Both the position numbers and the translations under genes were made by a program. Positions 17,591-17,860 of a stretch of DNA of 64,000 nt are shown one piece after another; position 1 is the stretch's first letter; every line of letters starts with the position of its first letter. Location of the stretch: IMG/VR virus record IMGVR_UViG_2939521961_000011; one strand, given 5' to 3'. Under the pieces are notes generated by a model. It saw nothing but the letters and a program-made list of their open reading frames with translations, searched no databases and was not told where the DNA came from. Source of the DNA: a virus. Its lineage: Duplodnaviria > Heunggongvirae > Uroviricota > Caudoviricetes.

Positions 17591-17860
17591 TTACTTCATC
17601 CCGCCAATATTTTCCCACGTCCCGTCAGCACGCAGGATTTGCAGCGGTCTTACCACGCACTGTATCTGCTTTTTATCCGCATCCAGTATCACCACCTGCG
17701 TGATTACCCTGTCCTGCTCCGGGATAATGCCACTCTCATCGGACTCCAGGATGTCTGCCGGTCCCAGTCGCAGTTGTACTGTAAGCGACTGCCCGTGTTC
17801 ACGGCCATCATGCTTTCCGCAACCGCACAGACGCTGCATAAGTTTTTTTAGTATGTTCAT
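17591..17860 (-). CDS. Small standalone paralog of the tail-fibre C-terminal tip domain
   Basis: 89 aa; LRLGPADILESD...ITQVVILDA...LQILRADGTWENI parallels the fibre C-terminus [14 protein letters not shown]...[13 protein letters not shown]; start 2 nt after the fibre stop. Confidence 0.5.
   Translation of the reverse strand: MNILKKLMQRLCGCGKHDGREHGQSLTVQLRLGPADILESDESGIIPEQDRVITQVVILDADKKQIQCVVRPLQILRADGTWENIGGMK

Follow-up and report, generated by a model that had tools for sequence, protein, structure and literature searches.

The closest described relatives of the gene studied here are the small open reading frames (ORFs) that follow fibre genes ending in a Phage_fiber_C (PfC) domain, and such an ORF, already annotated and already published, is a standard feature of Shiga-toxin-type E. 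coli prophages. The EPclA-type fibre, made up of PfN, a coiled coil, collagen and PfC, was defined by Ghosh et al. in 2012 (PMC3368898). It was reported there that the PfC of EPclA alone trimerises in vitro, as measured by SEC/MALLS, that PfC has little alpha-helix by CD and nucleates the refolding of the collagen helix, and that recombinant EPclA trimerises without the small protein when it is expressed in E. coli (PMC3368898). For the small gene itself, Mondal et al. in 2016 made a near-complete set of in-frame deletions in Sp5 (PMC5155283) and listed ORF68, an 89-aa 'phage fiber C-terminus domain' polypeptide, among the non-essential late genes, the fibre gene, ORF67, being essential. These authors also proposed that Sp5 ORF68 serves as an intragenomic reservoir, so the idea in the original prediction that a second copy of the fibre tip could be a donor for tip exchange was already in print.

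The small ORF analysed here lies in a stretch of 64,000 nucleotides from a Caudoviricetes virus record, which we refer to as the window. What is new here are the pairing counts, the Salmonella pair, the dN/dS values, the cross-genus rates, the low nucleotide identity between the two copies and the trace peptides in phi24B. The collagen-like fibres and their companion gene are present in most of the E. coli genomes searched, 4822 of 5426 matching part of the region, and to know the role of the small gene would bear on the host range and the spread of prophages that carry Shiga toxin and effectors.

The small ORF at the end of the fibre unit

[quoted passage not shown] The small ORF encodes a free-standing PfC protein of 89 aa (MNILKK...IGGMK), as identified from the ORF list, Pfam, PHROGs and PGAP. 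Its residues 1-89 match positions 1-89 of phrog_576 ('tail fiber protein', 89 positions) with an E value of 4e-59 and 197.8 bits, and the identical gene has been named "phage tail fiber C-terminal domain-containing protein" by PGAP (WP_001023433.1). Over residues 1-89 the protein is 92.1% identical to its orthologues in VT2-Sakai (Sp5 ORF68) and 933W (L0122), and an orthologue, 'gp59', is also present in phi24B. The PfC domain, assigned by Pfam, takes up residues 28-89 (17594..17779, minus strand) and is all-beta in the AlphaFold model; the N-terminal 27 residues (17780..17860, minus strand) are modelled by AF2 as a basic amphipathic helix at residues 3-11 and a variable linker of low confidence (LCGCGK).

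The gene just upstream (17862..19190, minus strand) encodes a collagen-like side tail fibre of the EPclA type according to its Pfam matches (PF08400, PF01391 and PF06820) and PGAP. Its longest ORF is 442 aa and in PGAP (NZ_OY754853) it starts two codons in, at the ATG at 19184. As read from Pfam and the ORF list, the fibre runs from phage_tail_N through an Ala/Ser/Glu-rich, coiled-coil-like region and collagen GXY repeats to Phage_fiber_C, and this last domain (residues 368-431; 17898..18089, minus strand) is the segment that is paralogous to the small ORF by Pfam and BLASTP. After the PfC domain the fibre has an acidic tail of 11 residues, which the small ORF lacks in the Pfam match and the alignment.

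The TGA of the fibre gene and the ATG of the small ORF are 1 nt apart (GGAGAA TGA C ATG), and the GGAG that we read as the ribosome-binding site of the small ORF is 6 nt upstream of this ATG, at 17867..17870 on the minus strand, and lies in the final codons of the fibre gene, as is typical of translationally coupled genes. A GC-rich hairpin followed by a U-run (17546..17579, minus strand; -29.5 kcal/mol, z = -3.8 by RNA folding) begins 12 nt past the stop codon of the small ORF and is likely to be an intrinsic terminator that closes the tail-fibre transcription unit, and it was absent from the output of a simple terminator scan. No sigma-70-like promoter of its own was predicted for the small ORF. 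The 1-nt junction, the ribosome-binding site and the downstream hairpin together mark the small ORF as translationally coupled and as the gene that ends the fibre unit.

Some other features of this region were also observed. Between lom and the fibre start there is another strong terminator-like hairpin (19201-19222, minus strand), in which 7 of the 8 pairs are GC and after which comes TTTTTT, and because of it the fibre gene and the small ORF would either need antiterminated late transcription or form a separate unit. The spacer between the small ORF and nleC contains an ORF of 63 aa (17190-17381, minus strand) that has no Pfam match and is unannotated in RefSeq, and two sigma-70-like promoter matches that face nleC (17434-17407 and 17274-17247). 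Two mobile elements abut in the window, one at 11283-15384 on the plus strand and the other at 15457-23417. The end of the plus-strand element consists of an ExoVIII/RecE-like protein of 820 aa with a C-terminal Rv2179c-like 3'-5' exonuclease domain (11283-13745), a DUF1233 excisionase (13818-14069) and an integrase (14089-15384). Adjoining this integrase is the cargo end of the lambdoid prophage, which begins with a dinI-like ORF (15457-15804, plus strand) and continues on the minus strand with nleC, the small ORF, the fibre gene, lom and J. In the closest RefSeq genome this fibre-nleC-dinI end abuts ydfJ instead.

Paralogy, pairing and selection

The original prediction that a separately encoded paralogue of the fibre tip stands directly after the fibre gene held up well. 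When the two proteins were aligned by BLASTP, residues 28-88 of the small protein matched residues 368-430 of the fibre with 23 of 63 identities (37%), 39 of 63 positives (62%) and an E value of 1e-11, and the conserved letters first noticed by eye, RLGPA.I.E...G..P...IT...D...Q...LQ.R..DG.W, were recovered in this alignment. Both proteins match PF06820 (Phage_fiber_C) over model positions 1-64 of 64, with 120.8 bits for the small ORF (E 3.1e-35, residues 28-89) and 123.8 bits for the fibre, the curated cut-off of this family being 25 bits. Judged from these scores, the resemblance between the small ORF and the fibre tip is far beyond chance. By tblastn there are only two copies of PfC in the 64-kb window, these two. 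The neighbouring fibre fits the usual setting of PfC, which is the C-terminus of a prophage tail fibre, mostly behind collagen repeats, unlike the small ORF, which is a separate protein with its own ATG and ribosome-binding site and no collagen repeats. It had also been considered that the small ORF might turn out to be a known, unrelated assembly chaperone, and this was not so, PF06820 being its sole Pfam match.

The same arrangement, for which the original prediction had proposed a search, was found in other prophages. Among 80 IMG/VR prophage loci that were collected by their match to the small protein, the small ORF was intact (89 aa) in 78, and the pairing with PfC fibres was strict in that the fibre-plus-small-ORF pair was invariant in about 70 prophage loci. 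In all the informative loci of the 80, the fibre ended in ...GRTGE, which was followed by the stop codon, 1 nt and the ATG of the small ORF, with GGAG 6 nt upstream of it. The pair is found in short-tailed Stx phages, where the fibre is EPclB, and in long-tailed lambdoid prophages, and the small gene is more than 90% identical across both. Orthologues of the small ORF are present in 296 phage records, almost all of them Stx-converting or related Escherichia phages, and nearly all of these orthologues are 90-100% identical; the fibre PfC is likewise present in 296 phage records with an organism breakdown identical to that of the small ORF. A Salmonella enterica prophage has a fibre made of PfN, Phage_fiber_2 (not collagen) and PfC, followed by an overlapping PfC ORF of 79 aa, and a prophage remnant of Citrobacter rodentium has a decayed version of the pair beside nleG. 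In the Salmonella prophage (locus L082), the place that lom occupies in E. coli, between J and the fibre, is taken by an ORF of 100 aa and a protein of 452 aa with a GDSL-lipase domain (2888-4551), and downstream of the small ORF there is a SopA-like effector gene. When 1.84 billion representative proteins were searched by phmmer, there were 58 matches to the small protein, almost all of which were fragments of the same E. coli protein, but the PfC domains of fibres were below the library-wide phmmer threshold and so this search says little on the wider distribution. A database entry of 565 aa with collagen repeats (P0145) contains a unit of about 75 aa repeated four times in tandem, with ...VVVLDAD...GILQVRRADGTW.EIPA.KG at the end of each repeat. 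The similarity of these repeats to the C-terminal half of PfC is weak (E 1.8e-5) and is a hint that a PfC-like strand motif may be more widespread in phage fibres.

Decayed copies of the 3' half of the small ORF were seen at four of the loci (L027, 3942-4151; L043, 3942-4172; L081, 2116-2346; L004, 3988-4134). These copies have in-frame stops and are 83-90% identical in nucleotides to positions 17591-17730 of the window and to the terminator region, and the pattern looks as if cargo may have been inserted or swapped by recombination at the 3' end of the small gene.

The mean pairwise dN/dS, estimated from closely related, non-independent and recombining sequences, was 0.13 for the small ORF compared with 0.26 for the fibre PfC, and by this measure purifying selection acts on the protein that the small ORF encodes. 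When E. coli was compared with Salmonella, the small ORFs were 62% identical and the fibre PfC domains were 38% identical, and the identity of the small ORF to the fibre PfC was 33-37% in every E. coli/Salmonella combination. These cross-genus identities point to an old duplication and to a free copy that is orthologous between the phages of E. coli and Salmonella. As far as can be judged from these comparisons, the free copy evolves more slowly than the fibre tip and the duplication predates the split of the E. coli and Salmonella phage lineages. Such slow and independent evolution fits a protein that has its own conserved partner or role, and it is not what a tip mimic or a store of variant tips would show. 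In the Salmonella orthologues the linker has lost 10 residues relative to E. coli and the Cys pair is missing, as seen in MTIFKKIKHCLSGGDKS; the hydrophobic pattern and the basic charge (net about +3) of the N-terminal helix are kept in Salmonella.

Expression, structure and possible roles

Among the peptides reported for the proteome of a phi24B virion preparation (10.64898/2026.04.10.717836) are two, ADGTWENIGGMK and VITQVVILDADKK, that are unique to the orthologue. Each of these peptides had 3 PSMs compared to 2267 for the fibre gp61, and this level is comparable to that of the contaminants Q (19 PSMs) and Lom (23 PSMs) (10.64898/2026.04.10.717836). The authors had included hypothetical frameshift fusions of the fibre and gp59 in their MS database and labelled the match "Spike or just gp59?", and the match is not discussed in the text of the preprint (10.64898/2026.04.10.717836). 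These peptides indicate that the protein is made during lytic growth and that purified virions contain no more than traces of it. Since its level in the virion is like that of contaminants, a stable attachment of the small protein to the fibre tip is not supported.

Of the structure predictions that had been suggested for both copies, the one for the small protein gave a moderate model (pLDDT 72.7) and the one for the fibre PfC alone, at pLDDT 57.8, was too poor for the two copies to be compared. In the AF2 model of the small protein there is a helix at residues 3-11, the pLDDT is below 50 for residues 13-22, and strands are at 30-32, 36-39, 51-60, 65-76 and 82-84, with the PfC part at pLDDT 70-87; this predicted all-beta PfC is consistent with the CD data for the PfC of EPclA (PMC3368898). 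When the model was compared by Foldseek with the PDB and BFVD there was no match at E <= 0.001. The best neighbours, all of them weak, were phage tail fibres: first came the Mu fibre from a crystal structure that includes its chaperone (5yvq_A, E 9e-3, TM 0.45), and then several predicted fibre proteins. A sequence search of the PDB with the small protein gave no relevant match. Two other readings of the N-terminal part were tried and rejected: a metal site or cystine knot in the CGCG...H...H motif, because Cys and His are not conserved in the Salmonella orthologues, and a lipoprotein signal in 'LCGC', because there is no hydrophobic segment. On inspection of MNILKKLMQRLCGCGK for a signal sequence, no run of at least 7 hydrophobic residues was seen.

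The explanation that we favour, with a probability of roughly 0.4, is that the small ORF encodes an expressed, selected and dispensable accessory knob protein of the fibre module that acts at the protein level. This would have come about by an old duplication of the PfC knob, a small all-beta trimerisation/tip domain that ends the collagen-like side fibre, after which the free copy would have been retained at the end of the fibre unit, translationally coupled to the fibre gene. [quoted passage not shown] What is shown is the paralogy, the strict pairing with fibres that end in PfC, the purifying selection, the translation in lytic growth, a presence in virions at trace level only and the dispensability of the gene in the laboratory; the formation of a trimer by the small protein and any interaction with the fibre tip are what we infer. 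With a good deal less confidence, we suggest that the free knob could be a detachable second tier of the tip, that is, either a loosely bound and conserved distal cap that changes the ligand specificity on natural hosts or a trimer that is shed at lysis and masks receptors. As a cap, its basic N-terminal helix would dock on the acidic C-terminal tail that is present only on the fibre PfC, and the cap would be lost on purification. If true, such a cap or masking trimer would be an accessory that is paralogous to the tip that it serves, which is not described for partners of the Tfa or gp38 type.

Other explanations have to be weighed against an accessory knob. That the free knob is a soluble decoy, released in bulk at lysis or made in lysogens, which occupies the ligand of the fibre on debris or lysogens and thereby limits wasteful re-adsorption or superinfection, is in our judgement unlikely, even though PfC is a self-sufficient trimerising knob (PMC3368898), the protein is made yet hardly incorporated into phi24B virions, the small gene is dispensable in laboratory assays and supernatants of EHEC are rich in the collagen-like fibres themselves. 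If the small protein were a mimic, its sequence should follow that of the tip, but it is only about 35% identical to the tip and the two differ in how well they are conserved across genera (62% vs 38%). In addition, the small protein has neither a hydrophobic signal peptide nor a credible lipobox context and its Salmonella orthologues lose the Cys pair, and with no predicted sigma-70-like promoter ahead of the small ORF its expression in lysogens is doubtful. The position of the small ORF, immediately downstream of the fibre gene, coupled to it and last in the unit, is that of Tfa, and it could be argued from this that the protein is a dedicated tail-fibre assembly chaperone, equivalent to lambda Tfa, Mu gp50 or T4 gp38, which folds the fibre tip. 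This is very unlikely, however, as no match to the Tfa family was found, the Pfam scan at E <= 0.01 giving PF06820 only, and as EPclA and PfC trimerise on their own in E. coli (PMC3368898). Moreover, ORF68 of Sp5 is non-essential while the fibre is essential (PMC5155283), and therefore the small protein is not required as a chaperone. It could also be that the function of the protein is minor and that what matters is the DNA, the 3' end of the gene and the terminator forming the edge of the tail module at which co-resident lambdoid prophages swap their downstream effector cargo. This has real support: blastn homology to other prophages ends 40-70 nt past the stop codon, just beyond the hairpin, several prophages have the decayed second partial copy of the 3' half of the ORF 0.7-1 kb downstream with different cargo, and the gene is more than 90% identical in short-tailed Stx phages and long-tailed lambdoid prophages. 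Yet by itself it fails to explain the constraint on the protein, since a dN/dS of 0.13 and 78 intact ORFs out of 80 would be needless for a mere DNA anchor and a Salmonella orthologue of 62% identity in the same position argues for a conserved protein role; as a full account we hold it to be improbable.

The two remaining explanations involve the joining of the small ORF to the fibre, and both fare poorly. It was suggested by Mondal et al. (PMC5155283), as also in the original prediction, that recombination between the small ORF and the 3' end of the fibre gene would give an alternative tip. The arrangement is superficially like that of alternative-tip cassettes, and a database entry, P0124, joins the N-terminal half of the small ORF to the C-terminal half of the fibre PfC. 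However, when the two copies are aligned by codons they are 54% identical in nucleotides, the longest exact run in register is 7 nt and the longest shared word is 11 nt. RecA-dependent exchange in E. coli needs roughly 20-30 nt of identity, and these runs are so far below it that the copies are poor recombination partners. The small ORF is under purifying selection (dN/dS ~0.13), both copies are on the same strand, and in 72 loci the fibre always ends in its own type of tip. The check for recombinant fibre variants that accompanied the original prediction turned up only P0124 in the databases, and this chimera is out of register, with about 10 residues lost, and is the single member of its entry. 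P0124 (92 aa) may reflect either a mutation or an error in sequencing. The copies are not flanked by inverted repeats, and neither an invertase nor a reverse transcriptase is encoded close by, which excludes mechanisms of the invertible-cassette and diversity-generating retroelement kind. Both had been considered as candidates: for a retroelement, the two copies are 54% identical and not a near-identical TR/VR pair, and the neighbours are lom, J, nleC, dinI, int, xis and exoVIII; for an invertible fibre-tip cassette, both copies are on the minus strand, the only inverted repeats are two short ones inside the fibre gene, and no invertase was seen among the neighbours scanned. Homologous tip exchange can thus be regarded, on the sequences, as already largely refuted; the small ORF is probably not DNA for tip exchange, and the chance that we would still give to it as a donor is slight. 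This negative outcome is a useful one, as the gene behaves as a conserved, protein-coding accessory. Even less credible is a programmed +1 frameshift or readthrough at the fibre stop codon that would give a minor isoform of the fibre with two tandem knobs. The small ORF is in the +1 frame relative to the fibre in E. coli and Salmonella alike, in E. coli this frame has 46 open codons ahead of the ATG, the phi24B authors considered fusion sequences under the label 'Spike or just gp59?' (10.64898/2026.04.10.717836), and a database entry, P0152, is a fusion of the fibre PfC into the upstream frame of the small ORF. Against this, both phi24B peptides map within the small ORF and no junction peptide is among those listed, a frameshift-prone sequence was not found by Mondal et al. 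(PMC5155283), the +1 frame in Salmonella is open for only 5 codons with no shared slippery motif, 46 open codons are not unusual by chance (about 0.1), and P0152 is a single member that may be a mutation or a sequencing error.

Comparison with known systems

In the G segment of Mu, the C segment of P1 and the VR/TR of BPP-1 Mtd, as in this locus, a second copy of the sequence coding for the fibre C-terminus is found just downstream of the fibre gene; here, however, the copy is an independently translated and selected ORF, on the same strand and 54% identical. Secreted or lipoprotein exclusion factors, for example of the T5 Llp-like kind, differ from the small ORF in that by inspection it has no signal peptide and no lipobox after a hydrophobic segment. 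Lambda Tfa, Mu gp50, P2 gpG and T4/T2 gp38 resemble the small ORF in being positioned after the fibre gene and coupled to it. A further likeness to the Tfa and gp38 partners is that the small protein may act on or at the fibre tip, and its weak best neighbour in the PDB, 5yvq_A, is the Mu fibre with its chaperone. The difference is that, unlike Tfa and gp38, the small ORF is a homologue of the tip itself; its sequence is unrelated to the Tfa families, and it is not needed for infectivity where the fibre is. The PfC of EPclA and EPclB belongs to the same domain family as the small ORF by profile, but the domain of the small ORF comes without a collagen shaft and without an acidic tail and has 27 residues of helix and linker ahead of it. 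Closest of all are Sp5 ORF68, 933W L0122 and 'gp59' of phi24B, which have the same length and the same position directly after a fibre that ends in PfC. The phages of the Sp5 type have a short tail and an EPclB fibre of 645 aa, whereas the small ORF described here belongs to a long-tailed lambdoid prophage with J, lom, an EPclA-type fibre of 442 aa and nleC.
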